64,000 bases of DNA, taken from Turneriella sp. GTDB taxonomy: Bacteria; Spirochaetota; Leptospiria; Turneriellales; Turneriellaceae. Position 1 is the stretch's first letter, and each line of letters starts with the position of its first letter. The notes below the pieces were generated by a model that saw nothing but the letters and a program-made list of their open reading frames with translations, made no database searches and had not been told where the DNA came from. Below, in pieces: positions 26,845 through 62,046 of the stretch. The stretch spans positions 64,001 through 128,000 of the forward strand of contig CBDIID010000003.1 of assembly GCA_965279515.1 (NCBI GenBank). The letters are read 5' to 3'. The position numbers and the translations under genes were made by a program.

Positions 26845-26888
26845 GAAGTAATTGCGCCTGTGAGCCCGGGCAGGGATGGCCGGGCGAC

Positions 26889-27707
26889 TCAGAAGCCGTA
26901 ACCTATAGATACAGTTAGATGGATGTCATGCACAAAAGAATTTCTACCAATATCAGGCCAAACCTCTGCATTCGAAAATAGATACGTTAATTGGTAATAA
27001 AGATTAAATCTAAACTGCCAGCTATACCAGAAGCGACCTGTCATGCCCACGCCAACACGCGCAGTCGGGCCATGAACAAATACGCTAGTTGGGGCAGTTG
27101 TAATTTGTGTTTGTCCATTTGGTGCCCCAAGCGCCGAGATAAGACTATTATAACCTGCGTATGGATAATAAGAACCTAAATCATACCCAACTTGGCCCAG
27201 AAGATCGAAAGAACTAAAGCCACTCCCGGGATACAAATGTATCTCCTTACCAATCAGTAGTGTATGGAGCGAAACAATCAAGCTATCAGAAATATGTTTA
27301 AAGTTCGAAGTATCGGTACAATACTGGCCGCAATAGCTAGTCTTACCCGCGTTAATGCGTTGGAGTTGGGAACGATACAGATAAGAAAGCAATGTTGACC
27401 ATCGTTCTGATTCGTAAGCTTGATAGTTAATGCCAAATACAAGGGTAAAAATAGTCGCATCAGCTGACTGCTGAGAACCATTAGGTACTGCGGTGGAAAC
27501 CCCCAATGCATTTGTATACTGATTCTCTCGAGTATAAATGCCACCGATTGCTGTGCCGATGCCAAACTCAAGAATAATATTATTCTGAGGAAAGTTAGAT
27601 TTAGCTTCTTGTGAAGTTTTCTCGACTCTTTTCTCAATCGCTTCTATTTTCGCAACGATAAAAGCGGAAAATACGACGATACAGACAAGGAAGAAAAATC
27701 TCACCAT
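26889..27707 (-). CDS. Cassette gene: outer-membrane beta-barrel-like protein
   Basis: 272 aa, signal peptide, ends VSIGYGF. Confidence 0.75.
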   Translation of the reverse strand: MVRFFFLVCIVVFSAFIVAKIEAIEKRVEKTSQEAKSNFPQNNIILEFGIGTAIGGIYTRENQYTNALGVSTAVPNGSQQSADATIFTLVFGINYQAYESERWSTLLSYLYRSQLQRINAGKTSYCGQYCTDTSNFKHISDSLIVSLHTLLIGKEIHLYPGSGFSSFDLLGQVGYDLGSYYPYAGYNSLISALGAPNGQTQITTAPTSVFVHGPTARVGVGMTGRFWYSWQFRFNLYYQLTYLFSNAEVWPDIGRNSFVHDIHLTVSIGYGF

Positions 27708-27764
27708 TAGGTAAATACAAACTGTTTTACAGATTGTAAAGACAAGGAAATTTTCTGGGGTTTG

Positions 27765-28906
27765 TCTTTAGTCCGGAGACATATGTTACAGTGGGGTTGC
27801 TGAAATAAGCGCCCGCCCTTAAGCGGTTTTTACCACAAAACTAAACTTAAGGGAGCGGGCAAATGTACGATTACCAAGAAGCATATCGGCGCATAAAGCG
27901 CAATTTTCATTACTACAAGGGAGATGTCACAGTCCGTATGCGGGCTATGCAATTGTTAAGGGTGCTACGGACGATTACGAAAGGACGATCCGTAGAACTT
28001 GCCTCTGAACTACAGGGTGTCAGGCGGCAGTATTTTTATTTCTGGCTGCGACGGCTGATTGCCACCGACTATGATTTGCAGAGCCTGAAAGGGCGTTCAA
28101 AAAGGCCACACTGCTCACGTAATGCCAAACCAAAATCAGTTATTCTGAAAGTGAAGGAAATTCGTAAGCTCGACGAATCTGGCGGCCATACCATCGCTTT
28201 GATTCTACGACGTGATTTTGGTATCCGCATCGCCGGTTCAACGGTCTGCAACATTCTGAAACGGGAGGGTATTAGCAAGGTTTATCGCTACCAGAAACGC
28301 AATGAGCACACGAAGCGGTATAGCGTAGAAAACCCTTTAAATACGGTGCAAACAGACAGTGCCTGGACGGGGTTTGCAGACAATCACGGTAACAGGGTTT
28401 ATTATTTTCCAGTGATCGATGATTGTTCGCGGGTGGCGACGGTTCATGTCTGCGATTCAAAATCCGGAGATGAAGCGATCAAAGGGATGCAAAGATTCAT
28501 TGAGGCATTCGGCAAACCAGATCAGGTTCAGACCGATAATGGTGTGGAGTTCACCAATCGATTTACTTCACGCAGAAATGCGAAACGGGAGAAAGACGGA
28601 ACATACGCTTTGTTTGAGCAATTTCTGTTCACACAGGCCATACCACATCGGCTAATCAAGGTTCGGACACCTGAGCATAATGGCAAGGTCGAACGGTTCA
28701 ACGGAACCTTAAAAAGGTTTCTTCAACGCAGGGCCAAAGATGGAATGAGCATCCTCCAATTTCAGACGTTGATTGATCAGCACATGGACTGGTACAACCG
28801 CCGCCGGCCACATTGGTCATTGAACGGGTTGACCCCGCACGAGCGGTTCTATGGAGTCCGCTTGGCAAAAATCGCATAAGTGTACGATATCTCCCCGGAC
28901 TCTACA
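27765..28906 (+). mobile_element. IS481-family element with 15-bp target duplication
   Basis: Imperfect 28-bp IRs; ATTTTCTGGGGTTTG at 27750-27764 and 28907-28921. Confidence 0.88.
27863..28879 (+). CDS. IS481-family DDE transposase
   Basis: VIDDCSR, VQTDNGVEF, TPEHNGKVERFN, YNRRRPHWSL. Confidence 0.9.
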   Translation: MYDYQEAYRRIKRNFHYYKGDVTVRMRAMQLLRVLRTITKGRSVELASELQGVRRQYFYFWLRRLIATDYDLQSLKGRSKRPHCSRNAKPKSVILKVKEIRKLDESGGHTIALILRRDFGIRIAGSTVCNILKREGISKVYRYQKRNEHTKRYSVENPLNTVQTDSAWTGFADNHGNRVYYFPVIDDCSRVATVHVCDSKSGDEAIKGMQRFIEAFGKPDQVQTDNGVEFTNRFTSRRNAKREKDGTYALFEQFLFTQAIPHRLIKVRTPEHNGKVERFNGTLKRFLQRRAKDGMSILQFQTLIDQHMDWYNRRRPHWSLNGLTPHERFYGVRLAKIA

Positions 28907-28999
28907 ATTTTCTGGGGTTTGAAACTCAACAAGAAATATTGATCCAGCTATGTTCACCGCCGACACGAGGTCGGCGAATAACAAAGGCGCAATTATTTC

Positions 29000-29213
29000 A
29001 GACAACGTGGAATTTACCTGAAGTTGAGTGACGCTTCGTTCAACTTTGTATTCTGTAAGGCCATTCTGCGTCACTCAATCTGCCCGAAGCGCCTCGCGGC
29101 AAAGCACAAAACAAGCGTCCCGCTTGTGCTTTGTCCGCGATCTTCGGCGCGCAGGGCCGAGCACGCGAGGAGCTGCGGCACCGCAGCGGCGCAGCAGGTA
29201 AATTTTGTTGTCG
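29000..29213 (-). repeat. attC-like site 1
   Basis: AAC GTGG AATTTACCTG...CAGGTAAATT TT GTT. Confidence 0.85.
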
Positions 29214-29276
29214 GCAGTACTTGCGGCATTTCGAGGGCAACCTGCAAACCACGGAGGGTTTGCAGGAGTATTTTAG

Positions 29277-31127: not shown

Positions 31128-31226
31128 CCGGAATAATACACATTATTATATGTATCGTCAATCTTTTCCGGGTTTTCCTCTGCGTTCCGAAGCCGCCGAA
31201 ACATGGATGTTTCGGGCAATAATGGC

Positions 31227-31442
31227 ACCTAACTTGGATTTTACGCTGACGTTTTTTGACGCTTGTGTCATTTATTCAGTCTGTAAAGCCGATTTGCGTC
31301 AAAAAATGTGGTCGTAGCGGCTCGCAGTGGCGCGCAAAAGCAAGCGTCCCGCTTGCGCGACATCTGCGATCTTTGCCGCGAAGACCCGAGCACGCGAGGA
31401 GCTACGGCACCGCAGCGGCGCAGCGCGTAAAATTTGTTGGGC
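31227..31442 (-). repeat. attC-like site 2
   Basis: AAC...ATTTTACGC...GCGTAAAAT TT GTT. Confidence 0.85.
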
Positions 31443-33294: not shown

Positions 33295-33747
33295 CTAAAT
33301 TAGAATCTTAGTTTCAATGAAATCTAGTCTTTTGCTTAACAAATCTGCCATTTGACGGGTCGGGCGGGCATCCACCGGTATCAAGTCTTCGATTGATCTC
33401 CCTTCTCGCACGGCGTCTACCCAGCGACCCATTTCATACACATAACCAGAAAGAGCCGCCGCTGGCGTTTCGTTATCAATCGCTGATATATAAGCAGATG
33501 GCAAATCACCCACGACTACCCAAAGCCAATTATCGGCCTTGCCATTTGGCAATATCTCAAAGAGGAAAACGGCCACTATACCACCAACTCCCAGGCCAAA
33601 ATGCGCATCTTTGATTTTCTTACACCAAGAGTGGCTTCTCAGATAGTCACTAGCCTCGAGATACATCTTCTTAAGCATTTTAGTGTCTGCGGCGTCTTCC
33701 CCGCGCATCTTTTTGATCGGCACAATATTCTTAAATTCAGCTTTCAT
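33295..33747 (-). CDS. Cassette gene: hypothetical (DUF4826-like WVVVGDLP motif)
   Basis: ORF filling the cassette; start placed at MKAEFK. Confidence 0.7.
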   Translation of the reverse strand: MKAEFKNIVPIKKMRGEDAADTKMLKKMYLEASDYLRSHSWCKKIKDAHFGLGVGGIVAVFLFEILPNGKADNWLWVVVGDLPSAYISAIDNETPAAALSGYVYEMGRWVDAVREGRSIEDLIPVDARPTRQMADLLSKRLDFIETKILI

Positions 33748-33815
33748 ATTTATTGCAAAAGTTCCATCAAACTCCAGCAAAATACCCTTCCACGATGAAA
33801 AATAAATGCGCAGGT

Positions 33816-35147
33816 TCAATATCAGAACATCGGTAACGAAAAGTCATCACGACATCGGTAACAGTTCTGCCTCAGGCTTTGCCGTGGTTTCCTCCTGATT
33901 TGGTGTAAACAAATAATTGTTCCGATCGATGTAGCCCAATAGCAGGCCACCGAAGTAGACGTCGATGCGCATGTCGGCGATAAACCGGAGCCCGATCGGG
34001 TAGCCGTTAAAAGAATTGCCGATAAATATCCGGTGCTGCTTGTAGTTGGTGTAACCGCGGTCATTTACCATGCGTACGATGCAATCCTCAGGGTAGGCGG
34101 GTACTACGTCGCCAATATACGGAATTTCAGATGGTAGGTAGAACTCTGATGGCGTCCTCATGCCCAGGGCTTCATGCGGTCGCACATTGTTGAAGTCTTC
34201 GCGCCACTGATCAAACGAAATCTGGTGAAGCTTTAGATCACCGCGAATGCGCCCCTGCAGTTCCGTGCGGATGTCTCTGTGCATACGCTCATGGCCACCA
34301 TTCTGGGCTGGCTTTCCCGGATCAATGCGGTCCAGAGAAATTCCCAAGGACAGCCACCAGACTGACAATTTTGTCAGGCCAAAGAGTCCCCACGATGATG
34401 CGAAAGGAGTTCCGTTGTCAGAGCGAATAATTTCCGGCAGACCATAGCGTTTGAAGAGTCTGGCAAAGTGTTGTTTTACATTGGAAATATTGCCCTTTTC
34501 CAGTATCTGTATCGACAGGATGTACTTACTGTACTCATCGCGAACTGTCAGAGGTTCGCATTTCTCTGCATGTGCAGTATACCACCACCCCTTGAAATCA
34601 ACCGTCCATATGTGATTGGGATGCGTCGCCTTTTCGCGAAGCATCAGCCTCTCTCCGGTTCTGCGGCGCTTCTTTCCTCTTGGCCTTGTCAGACCAGAGC
34701 GCGCCAGAAGGCGATCGACTGTAGGAACTGAAATATCGTCTTTGCGCTCCGGGTAAAGCCTGCAGAAAACCGCATAGATCTTCTTGGCTCCCCAGCGCGG
34801 CCTGTTATTCTTTATGCGAATAATATCGCAGATTGTTTCTTCGTCAGTGCGGTTCGGATTGCCTCCTGGTTTTCGTGACAACTCCGCCAATCCAGCTAAG
34901 CCTTTTTCCAGAAACCTTGCCTTCCACTTGTACCCTGTCTTGGTGCTGATGCCAAACTCGCGGCACAGCTCTGTGAAACTCTCTACGCCCTCCAGGGCGC
35001 GAAAGACAAAAGATCTTTTCTCTTCCATTTTGGTAACCTCTTTCCACGGCATTTGAGCCCCCTGCCGAAGGCAGGCAAAAGCTCTTTGCGAAGCAAAGTG
35101 TTACCGATGTCTTGATAGAAATGTGTTACCTATGTCGTGATAGTACC
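33816..35147 (-). mobile_element. IS481-family element, copy 2
   Basis: Both ends carry tandem ACAT(C/A)GGTAAC repeats; no target duplication visible. Confidence 0.85.
33847..35052 (-). CDS. IS481-family transposase
   Basis: Close paralogue of 25395-26675. Confidence 0.9.
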   Translation of the reverse strand: MPWKEVTKMEEKRSFVFRALEGVESFTELCREFGISTKTGYKWKARFLEKGLAGLAELSRKPGGNPNRTDEETICDIIRIKNNRPRWGAKKIYAVFCRLYPERKDDISVPTVDRLLARSGLTRPRGKKRRRTGERLMLREKATHPNHIWTVDFKGWWYTAHAEKCEPLTVRDEYSKYILSIQILEKGNISNVKQHFARLFKRYGLPEIIRSDNGTPFASSWGLFGLTKLSVWWLSLGISLDRIDPGKPAQNGGHERMHRDIRTELQGRIRGDLKLHQISFDQWREDFNNVRPHEALGMRTPSEFYLPSEIPYIGDVVPAYPEDCIVRMVNDRGYTNYKQHRIFIGNSFNGYPIGLRFIADMRIDVYFGGLLLGYIDRNNYLFTPNQEETTAKPEAELLPMS

Positions 35148-35158
35148 CCGCCAATGTC

Positions 35159-35375
35159 ACACAATGTGGATTTTACGCTGACGTTTTTTGACGCTTGTGT
35201 CATTAATTCAATCAGGCAAGCCGATTTGTGTCACCAAATCTGCCCGGAGCGCCTCGCGGCAAAGCACAAAACAAGCGTCCCGCTTGTGCTTTGTCCGCGA
35301 TCTTCTGGCGCGCAGGGCCGAGCACGCGAGGAGCTACGGCACCGCAGCGAGCGCAGCAGGTAAATTTTGTTGTCT
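35159..35375 (-). repeat. attC-like site 5 (core AAC mutated to AAT, chimeric arms)
   Basis: CACAAT GTGG ATTTTACGC...CAGGTAAATT TT GTT. Confidence 0.8.
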
Positions 35376-35425
35376 GACGTTTCTAACCCGCAATATGCCG
35401 CCGTAGCCATGGAGGGCGAAGGCGG

Positions 35426-35722
35426 TTAGTGGAAAGGCTCCTGTAGAATCCTTGCCCCATGCCAAATGATACCTATTTCAACGCGATCTTCACGCACTCT
35501 GTAAATTATGCGATAATCTTGAAAGATGACCTCTCGATAGTCTTTATCAGGAAATTCCGGGACTTTTCGGCCCATTAAGGGATGCTGTTCCAGTTGCTTA
35601 ACGCGGATGTTTATTTCCCGGGCAAGTAACTTGGCATAGGGTAATGAAAACTGTTCAATATACTGGCAAATTGCTTCGAAGCTTTGTATTGCCGGTTCTG
35701 ACCACCTTATTCGGAAAGCCAT
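35426..35722 (-). CDS. RelE/ParE family toxin
   Basis: IRWSEPAI...HPLMGRKVPE...YREVIFQDYRIIYRV...HGAR. Confidence 0.88.
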   Translation of the reverse strand: MAFRIRWSEPAIQSFEAICQYIEQFSLPYAKLLAREINIRVKQLEQHPLMGRKVPEFPDKDYREVIFQDYRIIYRVREDRVEIGIIWHGARILQEPFH

Positions 35723-35901
35723 TTAGCCATGCGCTTTTCCACTTCTTCGTGATCAACGCCACCATTCTTATCTAAATCACTAAAGGCAGCGTCTACCCGT
35801 GCCCTGAAGTAGAGCTTTTCCATAATATCTGATACCGTAGCAGTATCTGGCAATGAGTCTATCATTTTGACGACCTCATCTTTTACTGTAGCCTGTGCCA
35901 T
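35707..35901 (-). CDS. Antitoxin partner of the RelE/ParE toxin
   Basis: KDEVVKMIDSLPD...DIMEKLYF...HEEVEKRMAKWL; overlaps toxin start. Confidence 0.8.
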   Translation of the reverse strand: MAQATVKDEVVKMIDSLPDTATVSDIMEKLYFRARVDAAFSDLDKNGGVDHEEVEKRMAKWLSE

Positions 35902-36035
35902 AAGACAGGATAGCCAAGCCATTTAGTGCAGCAAGGATTTTCCAGAAATCTCGCTCTAAGCTAAAGTAAGCTCAATCACCAGGGCTCGACCGCGGCATGG
36001 ATGCCGCGTGCATGGTATTGCGGGTTAGAAATGTC

Positions 36036-36258
36036 AGACAACATGGAATTTACACGAGGTCGATGGTGCGCCGCACAATAATAGTGGGCTTATTTGGAAA
36101 GCCGCATATTAAGCACCATCGATCTGCCGTAGACCGCTCGTTGCGCCTGACCAAACAAACGTCCCGTTTGTCAGGCGTCAACGATCTTTGCGGTCGGAGG
36201 CCGAGCACGCGAGGAGCTACGGCACCGCAGCGAGCGCAGCAGGTAAATTTTGTTTTCT
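36036..36258 (-). repeat. attC-like site 6
   Basis: Same repeat family. Confidence 0.85.
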
Positions 36259-36332
36259 GACGTAGCTGCCCTTGTGAACCCGGCCATGGACGGCCGGGTG
36301 AAAATTTGGAATACTGGCCCGCGGCAAAATGA

Positions 36333-37280
36333 GTGAGGTCTCATAATTGGCTTGCTGCCCAGCTGGGAAAGCAAAATAAGTTCTTTGTGAAATGCCTCGG
36401 TAAGCTGAGTTTCTTCTCCGTGCTGCTCTTAGTGGCGATACTGCCAATTGGTGCACAACTGACGGAGAAGGATTTCGATGAGCTTCTTGTGGCCGTAGAG
36501 GCGAGTAATTTTAAGAAACTCAAAACAATATTAAATAAAGAAAAGGCGAACGCGAAAGACAAGCACGGTAAACCTCTTTTACACCGAGTGAAAGATATTC
36601 GAATTGCTAGACTTTTTCTCGAAAACGGTAGCAATGTCAATGCAACGGATGGTTATTTCGAGACAACAGCATTGCATAAAGGACCAAGTATTCAGTTTGC
36701 CAAACTCTTTATTGAATTCGGGGCAGACGTAAATGCGAGAACTAGGTATAAGCAAACGCCTTTATATGGGGTTGATACAATTGAACTGGCGAAGTTACTC
36801 GTCGAAAACGGCGCAGACATAAATGCAAGAAATGATTCAGGATATACCCCCCTGCATGTGACGAATAGTATTGCAGTCGCTGCTTTTCTTATCGATAAAG
36901 GCGCAGATGTTAATGCCAGAACTGATGACGGATCGACGCCGATACATCGAGTTCAGGACGTTCGAAAGATTAATCTGCTGATTGAAAAGGGAGCCGATAT
37001 TAACGCTCAGAATAATGCAGGTGAGACCGTTTTGCACCTAGCCGCAAAAGAGGGTCAAACTATTCATGTTGATAAGATGGAAGCAGGTCATCATGCTCCA
37101 TCGCGAACGGACTGGACAGAAAACAAGAAAATTATTAGATTGCTTACTACCCACGGAATAAATGCCTTTTTGAAAAATGCAAAGGGAGAAACAGCTTTTG
37201 AAATTGCTTGGGATAAACAAGTTAAAGCCCTTCTAAAGGCTGCGGAAGAAAAATATCGGGCTCAAATAAAGAGCAAGTAA
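36333..37280 (+). CDS. Cassette gene: exported ankyrin-repeat protein
   Basis: Repeated GADVNAR...G.TPLH units; start may be GTG at 36387. Confidence 0.9.
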   Translation: MRSHNWLAAQLGKQNKFFVKCLGKLSFFSVLLLVAILPIGAQLTEKDFDELLVAVEASNFKKLKTILNKEKANAKDKHGKPLLHRVKDIRIARLFLENGSNVNATDGYFETTALHKGPSIQFAKLFIEFGADVNARTRYKQTPLYGVDTIELAKLLVENGADINARNDSGYTPLHVTNSIAVAAFLIDKGADVNARTDDGSTPIHRVQDVRKINLLIEKGADINAQNNAGETVLHLAAKEGQTIHVDKMEAGHHAPSRTDWTENKKIIRLLTTHGINAFLKNAKGETAFEIAWDKQVKALLKAAEEKYRAQIKSK

Positions 37281-37381
37281 ATATGCTTTTGAGGAACATA
37301 AACTGTTTGAATTCTTGATTGCCGTGTTTTGACAACCAGTGCCCGCATGGAGGCGGGCAAATAACATTGGGCAGCTATGTC

Positions 37382-37601
37382 AGAGAACGTGGAATTTACC
37401 TGAGGTCGATAGTGCGTCGCACAACAAATGCAGTCTTCATTCGAAAGCCGCGGCTTGATGCACTATCGATCTGCCGTAGGTCGCCTCGTTGCGCCCGACC
37501 AAACAAACGTCCCGTTTGTCGGGCGTCAACGAGTCTTCGCGACCGGAGGCCGAGGACGCGAGCCAACGAAGTGCGCACGCTCGCAGCGGGTAATTCTTGT
37601 T
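37382..37601 (-). repeat. attC-like site 7 (interrupted at its GTT by IS1182)
   Basis: Repeat continues as GTTAGGC at 39339. Confidence 0.85.
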
Positions 37602-39338
37602 GAATCTGTAGAATAAGATTGCTTTGGCCTGAAAATTGCCGTAGTTACGTAGGTTATAATGCAACATATCGGGAGAAACCCATGCCGCGATTTAGATCAG
37701 AAAACAGAAGCCAGAATATGCTTGTGCCGGTCGATCTTTCGGATCAGATAATGAAGGGGACACTGGAAGCGACGATCAACGAAGCAATCAATCGGATGGA
37801 CATGACGCCGTTTACCCGCAGAATCAAGAACGACCTCACCGGTGCGCCGGCATATGATCCACGCTCGTTGCTCAAGGTGATTCTCTTTGCCTATTCGCGG
37901 GGGATTTTGTCTTCGCGCCGTATTGCCGATGCCTGCGAGAAGCACATTGTGTTCATGGCCTTGAGCGGTTATAGCAAGCCTAATTTTACCACAATTGCTG
38001 ATTTTATCTCTTCGATGGGGGCAGAGGTTAAGCAGGTTTTCATCCACATTCTGCGAGTCTGTGCGAAAATGGATTTAATCGGCGCGGAGCGCTTTGCGAT
38101 TGATGGGCACAAGCTTTCCTCGAGCGCCGCTAAGGAACATAGCGGTCGCTTTGCCGATTTCAAAAAGCGTATCGAAAAATACTCCGACCTGATCGGGGCT
38201 CTGGTCAGGCAGCATGCAGAAACAGATTTGAAAGAGAGAAAGGCAGCGTTGGCACAAAAGCGTAATCGGCTGACAGCGAAGAAAGAACGACTGGAGGGGT
38301 TTTTAGAATCCAACCAGGCTAAACGGGCAACGCGGAAATGCGGCAAAGAGCCGACGAGCAACGTGACGGATAACGAATCGGCCAAGATAATTTCATCGCA
38401 CGGGGTGATTCAGGGCTATAACGGTGTTGCGGCGACCGATGAGAAATGCCAGATTGTGATCGCGGCCGAAGCGCACGGTACTTCTTACGAGGGCAACCTG
38501 CTGATGCCAATGCTTGGTATAGCCGAAGAGAACATGGCGGATGTCGAAATAGATAAAACAATATCAGAGATACAGGTACTTGCGGACGCAAATTACTTCA
38601 ACGAAGCAAACCTGAAGGCTATGTCAGAGAAAGGGATCGATGCGTATATACCCGATCCGATGTTTCGCAAGCGCGATCCGCGGTTTGCGAATGCAGACGA
38701 CCACAAGGGTAAGACGCGCAGGAATGTCTATGACACGAAGAAGTCACAGGGCTTGCGCGGGTTCGGACAGGAGGATTTTATCCATGACAAGAACGGTGAT
38801 TTTTACATCTGTAAATCGAGTCACCGTCTGAACCGGTGGGCCAATCACGCGAGCAGTGGTGGCCGGGTTTACGGTATTGGAAAAATTGCGCACTGTCGGT
38901 CCTGTCCTTTGCGTAACGAGTGCATGCCCGGTGGTAATGCTCGGTCCAAGAAAATGATTACAGTCGCGAGCACAGATGCAGATAGCAGGCGCATGCCGTA
39001 TTCGACCGCGATGAAGGCTAAAATTGATTCACCAGAGGGCAAGGCGATCTATGCGAGGCGGTTGCAGATTGTGGAACCGGTGTTTGCGAACACCAGGGCG
39101 CATAAAGGGATGAATAAATTTACACTCCGCGGGAAGCGAAAAGTGAATATTCAGTGGCTGCTCTACATGTCGGTTCATAATCTTTCTAAGATTGCCAGGG
39201 CAATTCGTGCGAATCCGCAGTTACAGATAGCGTGATACGGCGTGGGAAATCAGTACTGAAGGAAAAGGCGATTTAGCGGGCAGAACAAAAGACGAACAGG
39301 CCTATTGCGCTACGAGCGGGGACTTTTTCTACAGATTC
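37602..39338 (+). mobile_element. IS1182-family element inserted at the attC core
   Basis: IRs GAATCTGTAGAA(T/A)AAG; GTT duplicated at 37599-37601 and 39339-39341. Confidence 0.88.
37682..39235 (+). CDS. IS1182-family transposase
   Basis: GAPAYDP..LLKVILFAYSRG..SSRRI, AIDG, LADANY, VEPVFAN. Confidence 0.9.
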   Translation: MPRFRSENRSQNMLVPVDLSDQIMKGTLEATINEAINRMDMTPFTRRIKNDLTGAPAYDPRSLLKVILFAYSRGILSSRRIADACEKHIVFMALSGYSKPNFTTIADFISSMGAEVKQVFIHILRVCAKMDLIGAERFAIDGHKLSSSAAKEHSGRFADFKKRIEKYSDLIGALVRQHAETDLKERKAALAQKRNRLTAKKERLEGFLESNQAKRATRKCGKEPTSNVTDNESAKIISSHGVIQGYNGVAATDEKCQIVIAAEAHGTSYEGNLLMPMLGIAEENMADVEIDKTISEIQVLADANYFNEANLKAMSEKGIDAYIPDPMFRKRDPRFANADDHKGKTRRNVYDTKKSQGLRGFGQEDFIHDKNGDFYICKSSHRLNRWANHASSGGRVYGIGKIAHCRSCPLRNECMPGGNARSKKMITVASTDADSRRMPYSTAMKAKIDSPEGKAIYARRLQIVEPVFANTRAHKGMNKFTLRGKRKVNIQWLLYMSVHNLSKIARAIRANPQLQIA

Positions 39339-39369
39339 GTTAGGCGCAGTGATTTGAGCTACGTATCAA

Positions 39370-39564
39370 TCATTGTTTCGCCAAGGAGGGCGAAACAATG
39401 CGAACACCACGATCTATGATTAGTTCTTTGAATAGAGCAGAATTGTGCACTTCTTTTGATACCTTTTCAGAATATTCAGCAAGTGAAAGATGCTTATTAT
39501 TCTCGTATTCTCTGTTCCGAATACTTCTGACCCATTCGACACAATCAAATTTCTTCTTCGTCAT
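39370..39564 (-). CDS. Small putative antitoxin downstream of a PIN toxin
   Basis: MTKKKFDCVEWVRSIR, overlaps the PIN gene end. Confidence 0.7.
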   Translation of the reverse strand: MTKKKFDCVEWVRSIRNREYENNKHLSLAEYSEKVSKEVHNSALFKELIIDRGVRIVSPSLAKQ

Positions 39565-40015: not shown

Positions 40016-40134
40016 TTTCAGCTAAAATATGCTCTAAAGATATATAAGGTCAACGCATAAATGTCGTGGCCAAAATCGACTGATGCCCGCCACGGATGGC
40101 GGGGGCGCCTTGGAAAACCCTCTCAAATCATTGC

Positions 40135-40349: not shown

Positions 40350-40437
40350 GCCGTTGCCGTTCGGATAGCCTCGATCAAGGAGGATCGAGGCGTATTTTTG
40401 TTTACGACCGACGATTAATATTTACGGCTCCTTACAG

Positions 40438-41121: not shown

Positions 41122-41178
41122 ACAGCGCCCGCACGATGCGGGCGAATGACCGTGAGTCATTAACCGTACAATTATTTC

Positions 41179-41399: not shown

Positions 41400-41444
41400 G
41401 CAGTTGCCGGTTCGGTAGCCGAGACCAAGGATGGTCGAGGCGAA

Positions 41445-41958: not shown

Positions 41959-42116
41959 TAGATACCTTGCGCCCTTACTTGCTAAAATATATTGAGGTGT
42001 AAACTATTATTGGCGTTGGGGACTTATGTCAGCCATTTCTTGCTCTTTTCTGAGCAAATAGCGCTAAACCCCGGCATGGATGCCGGGAGCGGACATTTTG
42101 TCTCACCGGCAATTGC

Positions 42117-42333: not shown

Positions 42334-42460
42334 GACGTAGTTGCGGCTGCAAGCCCGGGCAGGGATGGCCGGGCGGCCACTTTATACAAAAATTCTTGGA
42401 CATAGAATAAACAAGCTTTACACACGAAGCCTGCTGAGCATATCGAATCTTATCTGTTCA

Positions 42461-42913: not shown

Positions 42914-42977
42914 GTCTGTCCCAATTTTGTTAATGCGCCGACATGGATGTCGGCGGAGTACATGCCGCAACTATGTC

Positions 42978-44098: not shown

Positions 44099-44189
44099 GC
44101 CGTTGTCGCTACGTAAAGCTCGGCCAAGGAGGGCCGAGCGTGAGCCTTTTCCCCTGATTATTCGAGAAAATGCTTTTTAGCCTGTTCAC

Positions 44190-44729: not shown

Positions 44730-44807
44730 CTGACGTCATCCTGTTCAGCTTGCAAACAGGCGCGCAAGGATGCGCGCGAAATCGAAATTGATTTATGCGA
44801 CAATGGC

Positions 44808-46302: not shown

Positions 46303-46420
46303 GACGTTGCCGCGAGCTCGGGTCGGGCAAGGAGGCCCGAACCGAATCCCGAGTAACGGCGGGGTTGCAAACTTCGTTTACATGATAAATGTTTTAAATT
46401 TTTGCGAATTTAAGATTAAT

Positions 46421-46840: not shown

Positions 46841-46904
46841 GTATCAAAACGAAATGCCGCGCCCGCACGGATGCGGGCGAAAAAAATGCGACGCGGCAAT
46901 GTTC

Positions 46905-47521: not shown

Positions 47522-47623
47522 GCCGTTTGGCGGATATCAGGGGAAAAGCTTGCCAGCCATGGAGGGCTGGCAAGAAGCCTAAAAAAAGATGACATGCAGA
47601 GGGCACTTTTATATGTTTTGCCT

Positions 47624-48208: not shown

Positions 48209-48257
48209 CCCGACCATGGATGGTCGGGAGATCAAATAGGAGCCACCGACAAATGGT

Positions 48258-49022: not shown

Positions 49023-49039
49023 ATTTATTGCGGCATTTC

Positions 49040-49646: not shown

Positions 49647-49656
49647 GCCGTTAGCG

Positions 49657-50322: not shown

Positions 50323-50347
50323 TGAGAACTCCTTGATAGCTAATGGC

Positions 50348-50563: not shown

Positions 50564-50582
50564 GCCGTACCGCATCGGTAAA

Positions 50583-51110
50583 TTATCTCTTCTTGAATCC
50601 TGGTTCGCTCAGGCTGATAATGCGCAGCATATCACCGCGATGCGGATTCAAAATCGTCGCTTCTAGGGTTTCCTCAAGGATTTTGGCGGCTCTATCATCG
50701 ATCTTTTTTACAATGATTATGGCTGATATATATTCCAGCGGATCGGTGTCAGATGATTTTGGGTCATAGTTGAATTTGATTGTACGTTTCTTGTAGTATG
50801 CCCGCAGGTAATCTCTGTCTTTATAACCGGGAGGAATATTTGGCTCACTGCCCGCCGGACCGTCAGGCGGGAAGCCCGTACCGTGAAAAAGTTCAGTATC
50901 ATCGTTTTTTGACGTAATCGTGCGCGTCTTGGCTCGATGTGCATAGGTATGAATCTCGAAATCTTTATAATCAAGTTTCTGCAATAAATTCGTGATATCC
51001 GTTCGGGCCTTTTGGGCCTGCTGTTCTAAGTTAGATGTCTCGGGCCTACAGGCCCAAGAAAGCATCAGGGGCAGCAGTATCGTAGTCAGCTTTAGTTTAC
51101 TTTGTGGCAT
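50583..51110 (-). CDS. Cassette gene: putative lipoprotein
   Basis: LSWAC lipobox-like signal. Confidence 0.75.
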   Translation of the reverse strand: MPQSKLKLTTILLPLMLSWACRPETSNLEQQAQKARTDITNLLQKLDYKDFEIHTYAHRAKTRTITSKNDDTELFHGTGFPPDGPAGSEPNIPPGYKDRDYLRAYYKKRTIKFNYDPKSSDTDPLEYISAIIIVKKIDDRAAKILEETLEATILNPHRGDMLRIISLSEPGFKKR

Positions 51111-51165
51111 CTTTTCATTCCTTTAAGGATAAATCTCTTAGTACAGCATGTTTTTGCGGTATGGC

Positions 51166-51380
51166 ACCCAACGTGGAAAATACCCGAATTGCGCCCCCGC
51201 GGGTGTAAAGTGCAAATAATCACGGTTTATGCGACTTTCGTGGAGCGCATTTGCCCGTAGCGCCTCGCGAGCCCGCCAATGCAGGCCCACTGGCCTGCGG
51301 GCGCAGCGATCTTTGGCGCGCAGGGCCGAGCACGCGACCCAACGTAGTGGTCGCGGCGCAGCGGGTATTTTTTGTTAGCC
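51166..51380 (-). repeat. attC-like site 22
   Basis: Same subtype as sites 13, 16 and 19. Confidence 0.85.
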
Positions 51381-51567
51381 GCCGTTACCGGATTCGCGCG
51401 GCTGGCGAACAACCCGAAGGTCGGCTATATACTGTAGTTCGATCTTCTTAGTCACCGAGGAGTTGTCGCCAGGATCAAAGGCGTAAGCAGCAAGAGCCGG
51501 CTGTACTCTCTGACAACAAATCCTCTTCTTCTCCCCTTCGGGCGCGAAGGAGGTAATGGTGGCTAAC
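51374..51567. other. ORF-less cassette, copy 3 (diverged)
   Basis: Homologous to 47115-47308 with scattered substitutions. Confidence 0.8.
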
Positions 51568-51783
51568 GGTGGATTTACCTGACGTTGATGGTGCGCCGCA
51601 CAATAATTACAGACTTATTCGTTAAGCGCATATCAAGCACCATCGATGTGTCGAGGCGGCTGCGTTGCGCCCGACCAAACAAACGTCCCGTTTGTCGGGC
51701 GTCAACGCATTTCATGCCGCCGAGACCGAGCACGCGAGGAGCCACGGCACCGCAGCGAGCGCAGCAGGTAAATCTTGTTCTCT
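51561..51783 (-). repeat. attC-like site 23
   Basis: Same repeat family. Confidence 0.85.
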
Positions 51784-51859
51784 GCCGTGATTTGACCGGC
51801 TAAGTTCGGCCAGCAGCTCTTGCCGTTTCGCCAAGGATGGCGAAACGGCGCAATATTCT

Positions 51860-52066
51860 TCAGGTGCCGTCTGTCTTTTTGGCGTATTCAGTGGCCAATT
51901 GGCTAATCTGATCGCCAGACATTCCCGCAAAGAGGTCTTGCCGCCACTTAGTGTAGTCGAATCGATCTCGCTGAATTAGGGAGACAAAACGCTCAGCCTC
52001 GACTAAGCCAAGATCGTTGCTCAAGGCTTTCATGCCCTTCACTTTTATTTCTGTATCTGTCATCAT
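51860..52066 (-). CDS. Small putative antitoxin downstream of a PIN toxin
   Basis: TDTEIKVKGMKAL...LGLVEAERFVSLI...FDYTKWR. Confidence 0.75.
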   Translation of the reverse strand: MMTDTEIKVKGMKALSNDLGLVEAERFVSLIQRDRFDYTKWRQDLFAGMSGDQISQLATEYAKKTDGT

Positions 52067-52503
52067 CTTACGACCTCCGGCAGTTCCAAGAAATCAATTG
52101 GATTGATTACCCTTATGCCTTGAATACGATCTTGCTTATTTATGATCCCTTTATCAACAGTGATAAAATATGCACATTTACTAGCTATCGCACAGGAAAT
52201 ATGAAGGGCATCAAGCGATTTTATCCCTTTGGATTCAAGATCGCGCATTTCTTCAAGGATTTCAGGCGTTTGGGCCACATCGACTTTGGCAATGCCACGC
52301 CAATGCCGTATTTCTTCGCGGCGCTCTTCATGTGGATTTTGACCATTTTCAAAGGTAAGGATATACGACCAAACAAGGTCAAATTCGCCTTCTCTGATTC
52401 TATTTTGGATTTCAAGCTTCACCTCAGTTTCAAGCCGAACCCGTAATGAATCCTGGTCGTCATACGGCCGATTAAAGCAGCAGTTATCGAGATAGATTTT
52501 CAT
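52063..52503 (-). CDS. PIN-domain toxin
   Basis: IYLDNCCFNRPYDD, LDALHISCA, FITVD. Confidence 0.9.
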   Translation of the reverse strand: MKIYLDNCCFNRPYDDQDSLRVRLETEVKLEIQNRIREGEFDLVWSYILTFENGQNPHEERREEIRHWRGIAKVDVAQTPEILEEMRDLESKGIKSLDALHISCAIASKCAYFITVDKGIINKQDRIQGIRVINPIDFLELPEVVR

Positions 52504-52634
52504 GCTTTTTGTCCAAGTACCCTAGAAAATGTCGGAAAGCTGTCCGGTCAACCGCCTTTCCATTCGGAATGTCTTGAGCAACACGGCCGACATGGAGGTC
52601 GGCCGCCAAAACTCTTGGCCGGGCAAGTCATGGC

Positions 52635-52828
52635 AGAGAACGCGGATTTTACAAGACGTTTTGACTTGGAGCGTCTTCGCTTCAAGTCAAAATGTGCCCG
52701 GAGCCACTCGCGGCAAAGCGCAAAACAAGCGTCCCGCTTGCGCTTTGTCCGCGATCTTCGTGGCGGAGCGGCCGAGCACCCGAGGAGCTACGGCACCGCA
52801 GGGGCGCAGCTTGTAAAATTTGTTGTCT
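52635..52828 (-). repeat. attC-like site 24 (shortest, short first arm)
   Basis: ATTTTACAAG...CTTGTAAAAT closing stem. Confidence 0.8.
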
Positions 52829-52883
52829 GAAGTTTCGCGACCATGGGGGAAATATCGCCGCTGCCAAGGATGGCAAGGCGATG

Positions 52884-53282
52884 TTAATGTTTTCGGGTAA
52901 TCTCTAGTAGGAAGGTTGCGGGAGACACGATTCTTATAGGGAAATCTGAAATAGATAATATATCCTTATCACCACTTATGAGATAATCGGCTCCTGACGC
53001 CAAGCCTAAAGCCAAGATGAAATTGTCATCAGGGTCCCGGCAAATATCGACTGTTTGTGTAACGGATACGAATGTCGCCTTTTTAATCAAAGTATCCTGC
53101 CAGTGCAAACCTAATTGCGGATTTTTTGAAAGTCGCTCGATTACCTCAACATACTCAGCAAGCAGCCCTGCTGACAGTATGAGCTCAAATTCACCACTAA
53201 GCCATTTGGATACTATCTGAGCAGGTTTCCCAGACCAAATAATACCCGAAACAAAGACGTTCGTATCTATAATGACTTTCAT
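52884..53282 (-). CDS. PIN-family putative toxin
   Basis: IIDTNVFVS, CRDPDDN.IL, ADYLISGDKD. Confidence 0.9.
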   Translation of the reverse strand: MKVIIDTNVFVSGIIWSGKPAQIVSKWLSGEFELILSAGLLAEYVEVIERLSKNPQLGLHWQDTLIKKATFVSVTQTVDICRDPDDNFILALGLASGADYLISGDKDILSISDFPIRIVSPATFLLEITRKH

Positions 53283-53548
53283 CGAGCGCGTTTAGCGCGT
53301 GAGGCTTTGATTGCCTTCTGTAAGTCCTTTGGTGTCACTTTACGGCTTTTCATAACTTCTCGGGTGCGGCGTATCAGTGCATCAAACTCAGCCTTATCTG
53401 GCTCATTAATTTTTTTAAGGAGTAGATTGCTGCCATCTGCTATCACAATGAATTTTGTACCCTCACCGATTGACAATTGAGACCTTATGCTCTTGGGAAT
53501 TACAACCTGGCCTTTAGAGGACACGCTCGTGATTTCTATAGTTTCCAT
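53279..53548 (-). CDS. AbrB/MazE/SpoVT antitoxin
   Basis: SSKGQVVIPKSIR. Confidence 0.9.
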   Translation of the reverse strand: METIEITSVSSKGQVVIPKSIRSQLSIGEGTKFIVIADGSNLLLKKINEPDKAEFDALIRRTREVMKSRKVTPKDLQKAIKASRAKRAR

Positions 53549-53674
53549 ACCCCCCCTCGTAAGAATTTCTTACTAAGGACAAAATACAATATTAGCCATA
53601 ACCCGGCAAGATATTATGAGAAGTTTTGAATCGGCCAAGGATGGCCGAAAGCACAACAAACCAAGCGAAATTTC

Positions 53675-53897
53675 AGACAACGTTGGATTTACGAGAAGTT
53701 GATGACGCGCCGCACAATGAATACAGACTTATTAGGAAAGCCGCATACCAAGCGTCATCAATTTGCCGAACCCACAGCGTTGCGCCGCACCGAATGCACG
53801 TCACGTGCGTGCGGCGTCAACGCTTCTTTGTGGGTGAGGCCGAGCACCCGAGGAGCTACGGCACCGCAGGGAGCGCAGCTCGTAAATCTTGTTCTCT
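53675..53897 (-). repeat. attC-like site 25
   Basis: GATTTACGAG...CTCGTAAATC closing stem. Confidence 0.8.
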
Positions 53898-53948
53898 GCC
53901 GTTGCCGATTCGGCCTAAATCACTGGGCATGGAGGCCCAGTGATGCTG

Positions 53949-54530
53949 CTAAAATCCCTTCGGAAAGAATGGCCACTTGGCATCAGCCATGTGCCCGATT
54001 TTCTCGACCAAGTTGAGTATATTCAAAGCACTTTCCTTTGCACTAGAGTCTTCTAATTGTGTGTTCTTGAGGGAGTCGTAGGACGCACCGTAAATGCCAA
54101 ATTTCGAGCATCTGAATGTCCAACAGATTTTCCCGAAAAAGACCGATCCGTCGTTCATGTCGACTTCATTGAATATGTCGACCGTAGGCGAAATCGAGTC
54201 CATAGTGCCTGCTAAGATCTCCTTCTGTTCTGATAAAATCGGAAAATAACGAATATCGGGTTGCTCCATTTTGCGCCGAATCACCATTCGCTGACTGGAT
54301 AAATTTATAGTGATGACAGCATATGGGGTAGAATCGGCGGTAGAACTCATTGCCAAGATTACGCAGTTTCTTTGACACTTGAGTTCATTTTGAATGCTTT
54401 CCAGTTCCGCAGTAAACCGTGAAAAACCAATTCTATCAGGGCCTATGTGCACACTTTTTTTGCACGACAGCAAGGCCGCAATAGTCAGCGCGATGAAGGC
54501 TTTGTGTCGGATCTTACCCAAATGGCTCAT
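53949..54530 (-). CDS. Cassette gene: putative lipoprotein
   Basis: LLSC lipobox; start placed at MSHLGK. Confidence 0.72.
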   Translation of the reverse strand: MSHLGKIRHKAFIALTIAALLSCKKSVHIGPDRIGFSRFTAELESIQNELKCQRNCVILAMSSTADSTPYAVITINLSSQRMVIRRKMEQPDIRYFPILSEQKEILAGTMDSISPTVDIFNEVDMNDGSVFFGKICWTFRCSKFGIYGASYDSLKNTQLEDSSAKESALNILNLVEKIGHMADAKWPFFPKGF

Positions 54531-54591
54531 ATAGCAAACAGTGCACGCACGGAGGCGTGCAAAGAAGAAAACAATTTCTTTCGGCAATGGC

Positions 54592-54805
54592 AGAGAACGT
54601 GGAATTTACCTGAGGTTGAGTGACGCCTCGTTCAACTTTGCATTTTGTAAAACCATTTTGCGTCACTCAATCTGCCCGGAGCGCCTCGCGGCAAAGCACA
54701 AAACAAGCGTCCCGCTTGTGCTTTGCCCGCGATCTTTGGCGCATAGGGCCGAGCACGCGAGGAGCTACGGCACCGCAGCGGCGCAGCAGGTAAATTTTGT
54801 TAGCT
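54592..54805 (-). repeat. attC-like site 26
   Basis: Same repeat family. Confidence 0.85.
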
Positions 54806-54820
54806 GAAGTAGTCACGCAA

Positions 54821-55252
54821 TTAGGTTGCGCCCTTTTTTTCAATCGTTTTGAGAAATTCATTGGGGGTCATGATAATAGCAGAATTTTTCGGATAATCTT
54901 TGGTATTCCGCGAAATGAATATATCTACTTTACCCTTTTTGAAAGCAAAATACTGCACGGAATCTTCAAAATCACGCATGTTTGAGGCCAATGCCGAGTC
55001 TATTGTTTCCTCTGTTACGGGGAGTATATGCACCAATTTTCTAAATTTCTGCAGAATCGACCTTGCTTGAGTCGCCCCAACATTTTTGCTCAGCAAATAA
55101 TACAAGTTCCAGACGATCAACGATGAAACAAAGCCTTGGATTTGCCTATTTTCAAGCAGATTGATAATTTTTACAGCAGCCGCATCGTGAGGCTGACGTT
55201 GCGCCAAATAATCTAAAATAACGTCTGAGTCTAAATATACCTTCTGCGTCAC
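54821..55252 (-). CDS. PIN-domain toxin
   Basis: VYLDSDVILD, DFEDSVQY, ISRNTKDY. Confidence 0.9.
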   Translation of the reverse strand: MTQKVYLDSDVILDYLAQRQPHDAAAVKIINLLENRQIQGFVSSLIVWNLYYLLSKNVGATQARSILQKFRKLVHILPVTEETIDSALASNMRDFEDSVQYFAFKKGKVDIFISRNTKDYPKNSAIIMTPNEFLKTIEKKGAT

Positions 55253-60684: not shown

Positions 60685-61074
60685 TCAGTGGCCTTCTCGA
60701 TCTGATAACTCGATAATGGGAGCCTGGGCGGAAACTAAGTCGAATACTAAACCACCTTCTAAATGAATATGGTGTAGTGGCATTGGGGGAGCTTCTCCGC
60801 CAATAAAACCGTACTCTAGTCCCCTAGATCGCATAAAAGCCATGCTCTCGTGAATAGTGTATGTAATATCTGCCAAAAACCAAGCATCAGGGTCTTCAAT
60901 CGTAAGTGAAGTCTTGAATAATAGCACCGCTTTACAAATAAGCCGGTACTTTTGGTCATCTTCAGGTGCATGAATTTCTATTGAAGCCGTCTGATTGCTT
61001 GCTGCAAAGGCGACGTCTAAAATATCCAGCATTGGGTCTTTTTCCCATTTCTGTAGTAAATCAAGTGTATTCAT
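60685..61074 (-). CDS. Cassette gene: hypothetical protein
   Basis: 129 aa acidic ORF occupying the cassette. Confidence 0.72.
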   Translation of the reverse strand: MNTLDLLQKWEKDPMLDILDVAFAASNQTASIEIHAPEDDQKYRLICKAVLLFKTSLTIEDPDAWFLADITYTIHESMAFMRSRGLEYGFIGGEAPPMPLHHIHLEGGLVFDLVSAQAPIIELSDREGH

Positions 61075-61136
61075 AAGTGTTTAAATGCTTAGCAGAGGTT
61101 CATTGTATTTGTGTGAAATAATCTGGCGACCATTTC

Positions 61137-61355
61137 AGACAACGTGGAAAATACCCGAATTGCGCCCCCGCGGGTGTAAAGTGCAAATAATCACGGCCTT
61201 ATGCGACTTTCGTGGGAGCGCATTTGCCCGGAGCGCCTCGCGAGCCTGCCAAAACACACCTCCCGGTGTGGCAGGCGCAGCGATCTTTGGCGCGTAGGGC
61301 CGAGGACGCGACCCAACGTAGTGGTCGCGCCCGCAGCGGGTATTTTTTGTTGTGC
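61137..61355 (-). repeat. attC-like site 32
   Basis: Same repeat family. Confidence 0.85.
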
Positions 61356-61461
61356 GATGAATCTGCAAGGCATTACAAATGCCCCCGGCCAAGCATGGAG
61401 GCTTGGCCGGAGATTACTACAAATATTTGACCTTGTGTTTCAATTGATATACATTGTCTGC

Positions 61462-61722
61462 ATGGCCAAAGACGCAATTATAAATGCCCGGGTTGAAAGC
61501 CGACTTAAGACTAAGGTCGATCAGATTTTCAATGTTCTGGGATTGTCTCAAACCGAAGCCATAACGCTTTTTTATAAACAAGTTGAGCTTAACCAAGGGT
61601 TACCCTTTGACGTCAAAGTACCAAATAAGCTCACTAAAAAAACTCTTAAGGATTCGAGAATCGGGAAGAATATCAAGAAGTTTAAGTCAAAAACTGACCT
61701 CTACGCTGACTTGGGTATTTAG
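61462..61722 (+). CDS. dinJ: RelB/DinJ antitoxin
   Basis: INARVE..LK...LGLSQTEAI.LF...GLPFDVKVPN..T. Confidence 0.9.
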   Translation: MAKDAIINARVESRLKTKVDQIFNVLGLSQTEAITLFYKQVELNQGLPFDVKVPNKLTKKTLKDSRIGKNIKKFKSKTDLYADLGI

Positions 61723-61991
61723 TGCTCGATATCGAGCGTAGCAATCAATTCAAGAAAGATCTAAAGCGATCTCTCAAGAGAGGCAAGGATCCAGAAAAAT
61801 TGAAGGTTCTTATTGAACTGTTAGTTCAACAGAAAGCTTTACCCGCTAAGAATAGAGATCACAAACTGGCGGGTGACTACATCGATTGCAGAGAATGCCA
61901 TATCGAGCCAGATTGGCTTCTGATCTATACAGCAAATGAGACGGTGCTGCGCCTAGAGCGGACAGGCTCACATGCAGATTTATTTGAATAG
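61722..61991 (+). CDS. yafQ: YafQ toxin
   Basis: DHKLAGDY..CRECHIEPDWLLIY...RTGSHADLF. Confidence 0.93.
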   Translation: MLDIERSNQFKKDLKRSLKRGKDPEKLKVLIELLVQQKALPAKNRDHKLAGDYIDCRECHIEPDWLLIYTANETVLRLERTGSHADLFE

Positions 61992-62046
61992 CGATTTATA
62001 GCGCTGACAGGATGTCAGCGAGGCTCAGGCGACTTGCAGATTTTTC

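Follow-up and report, generated by a model that had tools for sequence, protein, structure and literature searches.

What are the small hairpins that stand at both ends of many gene cassettes in a chromosomal array of Turneriella sp., and why do their loops always lie on the same DNA strand? We addressed this question in a window of 64,000 nt (the whole stretch of DNA analyzed) from assembly GCA_965279515.1 (G000), where repeats resembling attC, the cassette recombination site of integrons, separate a long series of cassettes, many of them bracketed by hairpins with a conserved GGA loop. The genome has two such arrays, at C3 90-172 kb (which includes the window) and C3 3733-3806 kb (genome coordinates refer to contig C3), which together make up 3% of the genome; their cassettes are labeled by array and index (A1-n, A2-n), with A1-0 onward in the window. 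The hairpins look like an undescribed add-on to the cassette recombination site, and the reading that we prefer, with a probability of roughly 40%, is that each pair represents single-stranded DNA elements accessory to an enlarged recombination site that the cassette carries.

All 30 hairpins that an initial annotation of the window had listed are present where it placed them (Table 1); 27 have the 8-nt loop C-ANGGAN-G, and the three at 28958, 41126, and 62002 have loops one base short. In the array hairpins generally, the loop reads C-A-N-G-G-A-K-G on a short, G+C-rich stem. The bare 8-mer is mildly enriched in the window (38 matches versus 27.0 +/- 5.0 in shuffled sequence, with 2 of 100 shuffles reaching 38); the exceptional feature is the hairpin context, not the 8-mer. 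Counting strict hairpins (the loop motif on a Watson-Crick stem of >=5) bore out the genome-wide enrichment that the annotation had proposed as a check: 68 of 108 motif occurrences in the two arrays form one, versus 10 of 1800 elsewhere, and 68 of the 78 strict hairpins in the genome sit within the arrays. Five control loops each gave 1 to 6 hairpins outside the arrays, and four of them gave none inside; the 13 array hairpins of the fifth, CANCCANG, are CATGGATG hairpins seen from the opposite strand.

Across 150 distinct hairpins from six genomes, the stems covary while the loop stays fixed, with a covariation score of 0.786 versus 0.172 in shuffled alignments (0 of 500 shuffles reached the observed value). 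Paired cells amount to 89.0% versus 54.9% in shuffles (again 0 of 500), a percentage that is partly circular because alignment rows were preselected for >=4 of 6 pairs; the double-sided changes, which are strong at 7 of 8 stem pairs, are not circular. G-T and A-C combinations number 15 and 14 among 1236 stem pairs, a balance without G-T excess that is expected from a DNA structure; as a means of assigning the functional strand, the same comparison gave no signal, and perfect Watson-Crick stems are able to fold on either strand. Automatic calling over the whole genome found GGA in 49 of 54 left-hand and 42 of 54 right-hand hairpins, and true GGA-less variants number 10 on the right and 1 on the left. 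Loops without GGA (ACGAG, ACGAT, ACGAA) occur in 10 of the 52 undisplaced right-hand hairpins, as well as in 28958, and on several different covarying stems.

The hairpins come in pairs, as the annotation had described: of the 35 window cassettes, 15 have both, none has a single one, and 20 have neither. Classification by eye of all 125 cassettes in the two arrays gave 54 with both hairpins (among them 6 with imperfect or bulged left stems and 3 with a hairpin displaced by an insertion sequence [IS]), 1 doubtful single (A1-47), and 70 with none. An automatic classifier applied to 280 cassettes of five relatives gave 58 with both, 29 with one, and 193 with none, although it missed bulged hairpins among several of the "singles" that were inspected. 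The members of a pair lie 0.5-9 kb apart, one at each cassette end, with the loop starting 23-47 nt (mostly 25) past one attC and 30-45 nt ahead of the next. When a cassette is duplicated, both hairpins go with it, as does the attC on its left, which agrees with the earlier proposal that the hairpins tag the cassette as a unit.

All 30 window hairpins are on the + strand, and with looser stems (>=4 pairs, G-T permitted) the arrays hold 75 on + and 1 on -, versus 47 and 41 outside the arrays. The same bias recurs in the relatives, where hairpins on the strand of the attC model and on the other strand number 26/0, 62/1, 7/0, 8/0, and 17/2. The initial annotation had called strand independent of gene direction, and this holds to the extent that the hairpins never leave + whether the cargo is on + or on -; it is supported that hairpin strand is tied to the polarity of the array and of attC and not to the gene. 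The presence of hairpins, however, does correlate with cargo direction in this genome. The longest open reading frame (ORF) is on + in 40 of the 54 hairpin cassettes (and on - in 14), compared with 6 of the 71 others (58 on -, 7 without an ORF); four of these longest ORFs are IS transposases, and the totals are the same after correction. The link is weaker in the relatives (27 of 58 hairpin cassettes versus 50 of 193 others), where - strand cargo occupies 31 of 58 hairpin cassettes. Cargo of the window hairpin cassettes includes HicB, ParE, and MazF-like proteins, three PIN-type pairs (one of them PIN_3/MazE), DUF433/DUF5615, and RelB/YafQ, encoded on either strand, together with an ankyrin protein and proteins of no recognized type.

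The repeat between cassettes is an attC-like imperfect palindrome of ~216 nt with a branched center, reading CAGACAAC-GTG-GAATTTAC, three internal hairpins, and GTAAATT-TT-GTTGTCT. A profile search recovered a few scattered copies and, within the arrays, full copies numbering 75 in one and 52 in the other, all oriented alike; the 35 full or partial copies within 26770-64000 of the window likewise share one orientation. As in integrons, the sites have an inverted core (RYYYAAC...GTTRRRY) and fold as imperfect hairpins. The attC sites of integrons are about 57-141 nt long, and a common integron finder by default sets its size limit at 200 nt; the profile length here, 216 nt, exceeds both. Each cassette consists of cargo plus the site that it owns, and the crossover falls within one R box: in the duplicated cassettes A1-31/A2-18, A2-26/A2-41, and A1-37/A2-25 the whole left repeat is identical and just 11-15 nt of the right repeat are, which places the crossover at the left R box and assigns the left site to the cassette. 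The similarity of attC sites follows the right-hand cassette (nearest-neighbor concordance 0.709, with a permutation maximum of 0.685) and not the left-hand one (0.488), and 58 of the 64 ORF-bearing hairpin-less cassettes have their longest ORF on -. Crossover position, attC similarity, ORF direction, and the direction of the recombinase gene in relatives together indicate that - is the canonical coding (top) strand and hence that +, the strand of the GGA loops, is the attC bottom strand, which in integrons is the strand that folds and takes part in recombination (PMC13108822).

The two ends of every cassette are complementary over ~19-22 nt (for example, 29214-29235 with 31216-31234) and form a split extended stem whose sequence is cassette specific past about position 12 and whose median length is 22 nt in cassettes with hairpins and 19 nt in those without. 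Position 11 of this stem is a G-T pair on + in 106 of 106 stems; the opposite strand would have a C-A mismatch there. The conserved-loop hairpins stand a few nucleotides outside the extended stem, one on each side, and when the circular junction is folded with DNA parameters, the resulting order is hairpin, long attC stem bearing three inner branches, hairpin; in an excised circle, both hairpins would thus flank the attC-like site of their own cassette. The hairpin at 39371 had been reported to overlap a coding C terminus; no supported coding end lies there, and the hairpin takes the usual position after its extended stem GTTAGGCGCAGTGATTTGAG (39339-39358), with an IS between hairpin and attC. 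By GC skew, the origin lies near 2.78 Mb and the terminus near 0.30 Mb; in both arrays the lagging strand is therefore copied from the attC bottom strand (+), the orientation that PMC13108822 describes as prone to excision in Vibrio cholerae. The replication orientation of these arrays is the opposite of that reported to be conserved in Vibrio chromosomal integrons.

The enzyme that might act on these sites is not a canonical integron integrase. The integron-integrase profile TIGR02249 had no match above its cut-off in the Turneriella sp. genome or in five relatives, and the combination that marks IntI, a family-specific domain in an array-adjacent gene, was not found; of the four tyrosine recombinases in the genome, none is encoded near the arrays. 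Rearrangement seems to have parted the arrays from their recombinase. The relatives G002, G011, G005, and G013 each have a tyrosine recombinase gene just past the array end, pointing away from it (in G002 the array end is ~0.7 kb from the divergent gene), and its ortholog in our genome is at about C3 2.926 Mb. These enzymes, of 366-383 aa, align to VchIntIA (2a3v) with 23 residues in the region where IntI4 has 64, so that about 41 are missing; by this alignment, the array-linked recombinase is without most of the IntI-specific insertion and is not canonical IntI. Its clade shares a conserved extra N-terminal region of ~95 aa, the closest named relatives are labeled Turneriella sp., and beyond those come Xer-like enzymes of ~270 aa. 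No array was present within the 21 kb of L048, which holds the closest recombinase homolog outside the genus. The window array begins with a truncated site (model positions 141-216, at 26770-26845) beside an IS481-family transposase (25395-26675), and the recombinase ortholog, 2.8 Mb from the window array, lies beside a partial attC match at C3:2929089-2929176. That + is the attC bottom strand, that the hairpins abut the split extended stem, and that the recombinase of the relatives is not canonical IntI all go beyond the initial annotation.

We prefer a role as accessory recombination-site elements because the strand of the hairpins is fixed to attC polarity and constant for cargo on either strand, because their position is tied to attC directly past the split extended stem, and because the DNA fold of the circular junction places one on either side of the long stem. 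The all-or-none pairing per cassette, the combination of covarying stems with fixed loops, and the lack of a G-T over A-C excess in the stems point the same way, as do the location of + on the lagging-strand template in both arrays and the N-terminal extension conserved in the recombinase clade. Under this proposal, the single-stranded bottom strand would fold into hairpin, long attC stem, and hairpin, and the two conserved loops would serve as protein contact points. A candidate reader of the loops is the clade-specific N-terminal extension of the Xer-like array recombinase, which might act as an arm-binding domain; a dimeric host factor is another candidate. Within the array, the hairpins would point toward each other from the two attC sites whose synapsis is needed for excision of that cassette, a geometry that would account for the all-or-none pairing, and bridging them could favor or control the excision and re-integration of exactly that cassette.

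Several points weigh against this proposal. Hairpins occur in just 54 of 125 cassettes here and in 58 of 280 in the relatives (by automatic classification), so they are not required for a cassette to exist, and their enrichment with + strand or toxin-antitoxin cargo is not predicted by a recombination model. Hairpin cassettes are weakly more often shared or duplicated (4 of 54 versus 0 of 60, p 0.047; 12 of 54 versus 6 of 60, p 0.12), a recombinase gene adjoins neither array in the Turneriella sp. genome, and the N-terminal domain as loop-binding partner is pure conjecture. In addition, the same loop in flagellin leaders of this genome and in dispersed mosaics of G030, a genome of another family in the same order, indicates that the loop is not integron specific.

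A more specific version, which we judge unlikely, would make the hairpin pair and split stem the arm sites of a non-IntI, Xer-derived integron-like system, in which a dimeric protein reads the GGA loops on bottom-strand single-stranded DNA and joins the cassette ends, the candidates being the recombinase N-terminal domain or CsrA moonlighting on DNA. If so, each cassette would hold its own license to excise and re-insert, and its mobility could be linked to the state of CsrA regulation in the cell.

Two open questions in integron biology are why cassettes differ in mobility and how giant silent arrays remain stable; a cassette-borne, strand-specific pair of conserved-loop hairpins at an enlarged site would be a new type of cis element, relevant to both questions. 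Whichever role the hairpins have, the arrays show that an integron-like system can function when its recombinase is without the IntI signature domain and its sites are >200 nt long.

The main alternative, possible but doubtful, is that the hairpins act as RNA, namely, as CsrA-binding hairpins on + transcripts, where the dimer would bind one or both ends of the RNA of a self-expressed cassette and control its stability, processing, or translation, or where the arrays would titrate CsrA. The high-affinity ligand of CsrA/RsmE is A(N)GGA in a loop closed by C-G, with the consensus A/U-CANGGANG-U/A known from SELEX and structural work, and GGA is the essential core for binding; such sites are on RNA, typically within a 5' leader that has a second site at the Shine-Dalgarno sequence. 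The cassette loop consensus equals this consensus, and the GGA core in a short-hairpin loop that characterizes CsrA sites is found in 27 of the 30 window hairpins; the loop is thus a plausible CsrA ligand if it is ever RNA. The genome encodes csrA (PF02599 match, 81.9 bits, C3:3198123-3198278), and the model built from cassette hairpins ranks hairpins in the leaders of three flagellin genes (Pfam Flagellin_N/C) first in their loci, at 13.8-17.3 bits; these leaders combine the same hairpin type with GGA at the Shine-Dalgarno sequence. The excess of + ORFs, which are on the hairpin strand, also fits this alternative, with a like trend in the relatives, as do a locus with several GGA hairpins and leaders with two of them elsewhere in the genome.

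GGA hairpins outside the arrays include those at C3:370636-370730, 3984916-3984960, 3508294-3508340, 3852050-3852120, and ~4280460-4280560. The three flagellin leaders and the leader of a small ORF each have a GGA-loop hairpin and GGA at the ribosome-binding site; one locus has >=3 consecutive GGA hairpins and resembles a CsrA sponge RNA, and there are five dispersed units with double GGA hairpins too.

Several features argue against an RNA role for the cassette hairpins. Their strand ignores the gene, since toxin-antitoxin operons on - (ParE, MazF-like, PIN) keep their loops on +; - cargo fills 14 of 54 hairpin cassettes here and more than half of those in the relatives; and + is antisense to the canonical cassette direction. 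Their position is fixed to attC and not to a start codon, the GGA-less right-hand loops described above would forfeit the essential core, and the stems have no G-U excess. If the hairpins do act as RNA, however, >100 high-affinity CsrA-type sites in the two arrays would link a global post-transcriptional regulator to a cassette reservoir, a link that was not described in the literature searched.

Among the 13 genomes of the genus that were searched, 11 have the attC family and 11 have matches to the hairpin model; among six other genomes of the same taxonomic family, the counts are 1 and 0, respectively. The hairpin model has a further 18 matches in G030, which is without this attC family; these are dispersed intergenic hairpin mosaics with the same loop in both orientations. 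The mosaics (L125-L129) comprise two to four hairpins with CA(N)GGATG loops, and some are direct repeats flanking a multicopy gene for a 354-aa protein without a Pfam family. In the 896 kb surrounding IntI-like genes in other phyla (77 loci) there were just 4 such hairpins, 2 per strand, so the hairpins are essentially absent there; a looser count of any GGA loop at those loci (184 versus 91) was not relied on because nested matches were counted several times. Rfam gave 0 matches at gathering score in the window, TD-2 included, and at E values up to 5 within 35000-55000 it gave 5 weak, unrelated matches and no TD; the TD-2 RNA motif, with no covariance-model match, was rejected as a candidate. 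A literature search by title and abstract, to which supplements could add relevant tables, found no paper joining Turneriella with integrons and, among the papers listed, no description of hairpins flanking attC sites and nothing relevant on attC and CsrA.

Another explanation, which we consider improbable, is that the hairpins are bidirectional insulators of self-expressed cassettes, those with a reversed gene or a toxin-antitoxin pair under its own promoter, serving as transcription barriers or as stabilizers of RNA ends against array read-through and neighboring cassettes. Reversed genes are enriched in hairpin cassettes, eight window hairpin cassettes hold toxin-antitoxin-type cargo, and the perfect Watson-Crick stems would fold on both strands; moreover, PMC13108822 states that toxin-antitoxin cassettes of chromosomal integrons carry their own promoter. 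Insulation would nevertheless leave the strand-fixed, conserved loop unexplained, the toxin-antitoxin cassettes A1-1 (PIN) and A1-25 (PIN_3) have no hairpins, and 44 of 130 hairpin-less cassettes in G011 likewise have + ORFs. A T tract is absent as well: within 39300-48400 the terminator pattern occurs only at 40368 (+) and 48228 (-). Intrinsic terminators, which join a G+C-rich stem to a T tract, were rejected on the same ground, the trailers reading GAATAACAAAGG. A promoter scan of 39300-48400 was uninformative (10 promoter-like sites versus 11.3 expected).

That the hairpins are a mere footprint of cassette making, left by a prefabricated scaffold of leader, hairpin, trailer, and attC that took up unrelated genes and has no present role, is highly unlikely: unrelated cargos do share near-identical leaders (AAGTAATTGCGCCTGTGAG plus hairpin) and trailers (hairpin plus ...ACAAAGGCGCAATTATT) here, in G011, and in G002, and body G+C is alike in the two cassette classes (0.429 versus 0.418), but the hairpins also occur with many different extended-stem sequences, and covarying stems around a fixed loop in six genomes require continuing selection. 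The further suggestion of the annotation, that GGA loops kiss the TCC(C) apical loop of attC, found no support beyond the three bases themselves: no covariation links loop position 7 to the base on the 5' side of TCC in the attC of the same cassette (with C at that base, left loops have G 15/T 9 and right loops G 8/T 15; with G, left loops have G 13/T 2/C 1 and right loops G 6/T 11).

Other features of the arrays accompany the hairpins and sites listed in Table 1. An ORF-less mini-cassette of 171-178 bp has 13 copies in the genome, distributed over both arrays (window copies at 47123-47299, 49258-49428, and 51382-51558), and is always preceded by a low-scoring attC-like variant (about 60-70 bits versus about 190). 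An IS of ~1.3 kb with a 401-aa rve-type transposase lies directly before the left R box of attC in >=9 cassettes, with constant terminal sequence (copies at 33295-35060 in the window, in A1-43, 49, 62, and 63, and in A2-6, 13, and 29), which suggests an attC-targeting insertion sequence. In many sites, the first inner hairpin bears on the - strand a promoter-like pair, TTGACG - 17 nt - TTAAAT (for example, 29040-29075), that would drive the next canonical cassette; the resemblance is at the level of the consensus, and two subtypes of this hairpin differ.

Table 1. Hairpins, site examples, and border element in the window (window coordinates; an empty cell means that nothing further is recorded)
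Feature	Position	Strand	Remarks
Left hairpin, cassette before A1-0	26864..26885	+	loop CAGGGATG
Right hairpin, cassette before A1-0	28958..28976	+	loop CACGAGG, without GGA
Left hairpin, A1-0	29241..29266	+	loop CACGGAGG
Right hairpin, A1-0	31196..31215	+	loop CATGGATG
Left hairpin, A1-4 (ParE toxin pair on -)	35398..35425	+	imperfect stem, loop CATGGAGG
Right hairpin, A1-4	35991..36008	+	
Left hairpin, A1-5 (ankyrin-repeat gene on +)	36279..36298	+	
Right hairpin, A1-5	37340..37359	+	
Left hairpin, A1-6	39371..39400	+	IS (transposase 37619-39232) inserted between hairpin and attC
Right hairpin, A1-6	40086..40103	+	
Left hairpin, A1-7	40368..40391	+	
Right hairpin, A1-7	41126..41144	+	loop CACGATG, without GGA
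Left hairpin, A1-8 (MazF-like pair on -)	41418..41441	+	internal mismatches in stem
Right hairpin, A1-8	42070..42087	+	
Left hairpin, A1-9	42353..42374	+	
Right hairpin, A1-9	42936..42955	+	
Left hairpin, A1-11	44118..44139	+	
Right hairpin, A1-11	44760..44777	+	
Left hairpin, A1-14	46323..46340	+	
Right hairpin, A1-14	46860..46879	+	
Left hairpin, A1-16 (DUF433/DUF5615 pair on +)	47549..47574	+	
Right hairpin, A1-16	48209..48228	+	
Left hairpin, A1-22 (PIN pair on -)	51822..51849	+	
Right hairpin, A1-22	52584..52605	+	
Left hairpin, A1-23 (PIN/MazE pair on -)	52862..52875	+	core within longer bulged stem
Right hairpin, A1-23	53631..53648	+	
Left hairpin, A1-24	53919..53944	+	
Right hairpin, A1-24	54542..54561	+	
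Left hairpin, A1-31 (RelB/YafQ pair on +)	61385..61410	+	
Right hairpin, A1-31	62002..62020	+	loop CAGGATG
attC-like site, example, 216 nt	28998..29213	+	R box CAGACAAC, GAATTTAC, three internal hairpins, GTAAATT, GTTGTC
Right half of split extended stem, end of A1-8	42091..42111	+	...CACCGGCAATT preceding R box
IS481-family transposase	25395..26675	-	at array border, in the place expected for an integrase

Among known systems, REP/BIME palindromes and the spirochete TD-1/TD-2 motifs (PMC1950547) resemble the cassette hairpins in being small, covarying hairpins at gene boundaries, and the G030 mosaics are likewise dispersed; here, however, 68 of 78 strict hairpins are confined to the arrays, and none matches an Rfam family. 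A REP/RAYT system was rejected as a candidate, with 10 of 78 strict hairpins outside the arrays and a Y1_Tnp gene flanked by other palindromes; this single Y1-transposase (RAYT-like) gene, at C3:2616063-2617230, has three long flanking palindromes with a AATTAATT loop, a separate small repeat family. The CsrA/RsmA hairpins of flagellin leaders and of CsrB/RsmZ-type sponge RNAs share the short stem and the A(N)GGA loop, whereas the cassette hairpins follow the polarity of attC and a set distance from it and not a ribosome-binding site, occur one per cassette end, and are without GGA in about one in five right-hand copies. The arm-type sites of lambda-like tyrosine recombinases are accessory sites that flank the core site and are read by an extra N-terminal domain of the enzyme; the hairpins also flank a core site, and we propose a similar reading by the extra N-terminal domain of the array recombinase, but the putative sites here are hairpin loops in single-stranded DNA. 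A further parallel is with sedentary chromosomal integrons such as the VCR arrays of Vibrio, which like the arrays described here (75 and 52 same-oriented sites with RYYYAAC...GTTRRRY ends) consist of units with one small cargo each, many of them toxin-antitoxin, where the cassette carries its own site and that site is an imperfect palindrome folding as a single strand. Unlike those integrons, the Turneriella arrays have a linked recombinase that is without about 41 residues of the IntI insertion, scores below the TIGR02249 cut-off, and adjoins neither array in this genome; their sites are 216 nt long with three internal hairpins, the stem extends ~12-15 nt past the R box, where its sequence differs between cassettes except for an invariant G-T pair, and two conserved-loop hairpins are added to it in about 40% of the cassettes.

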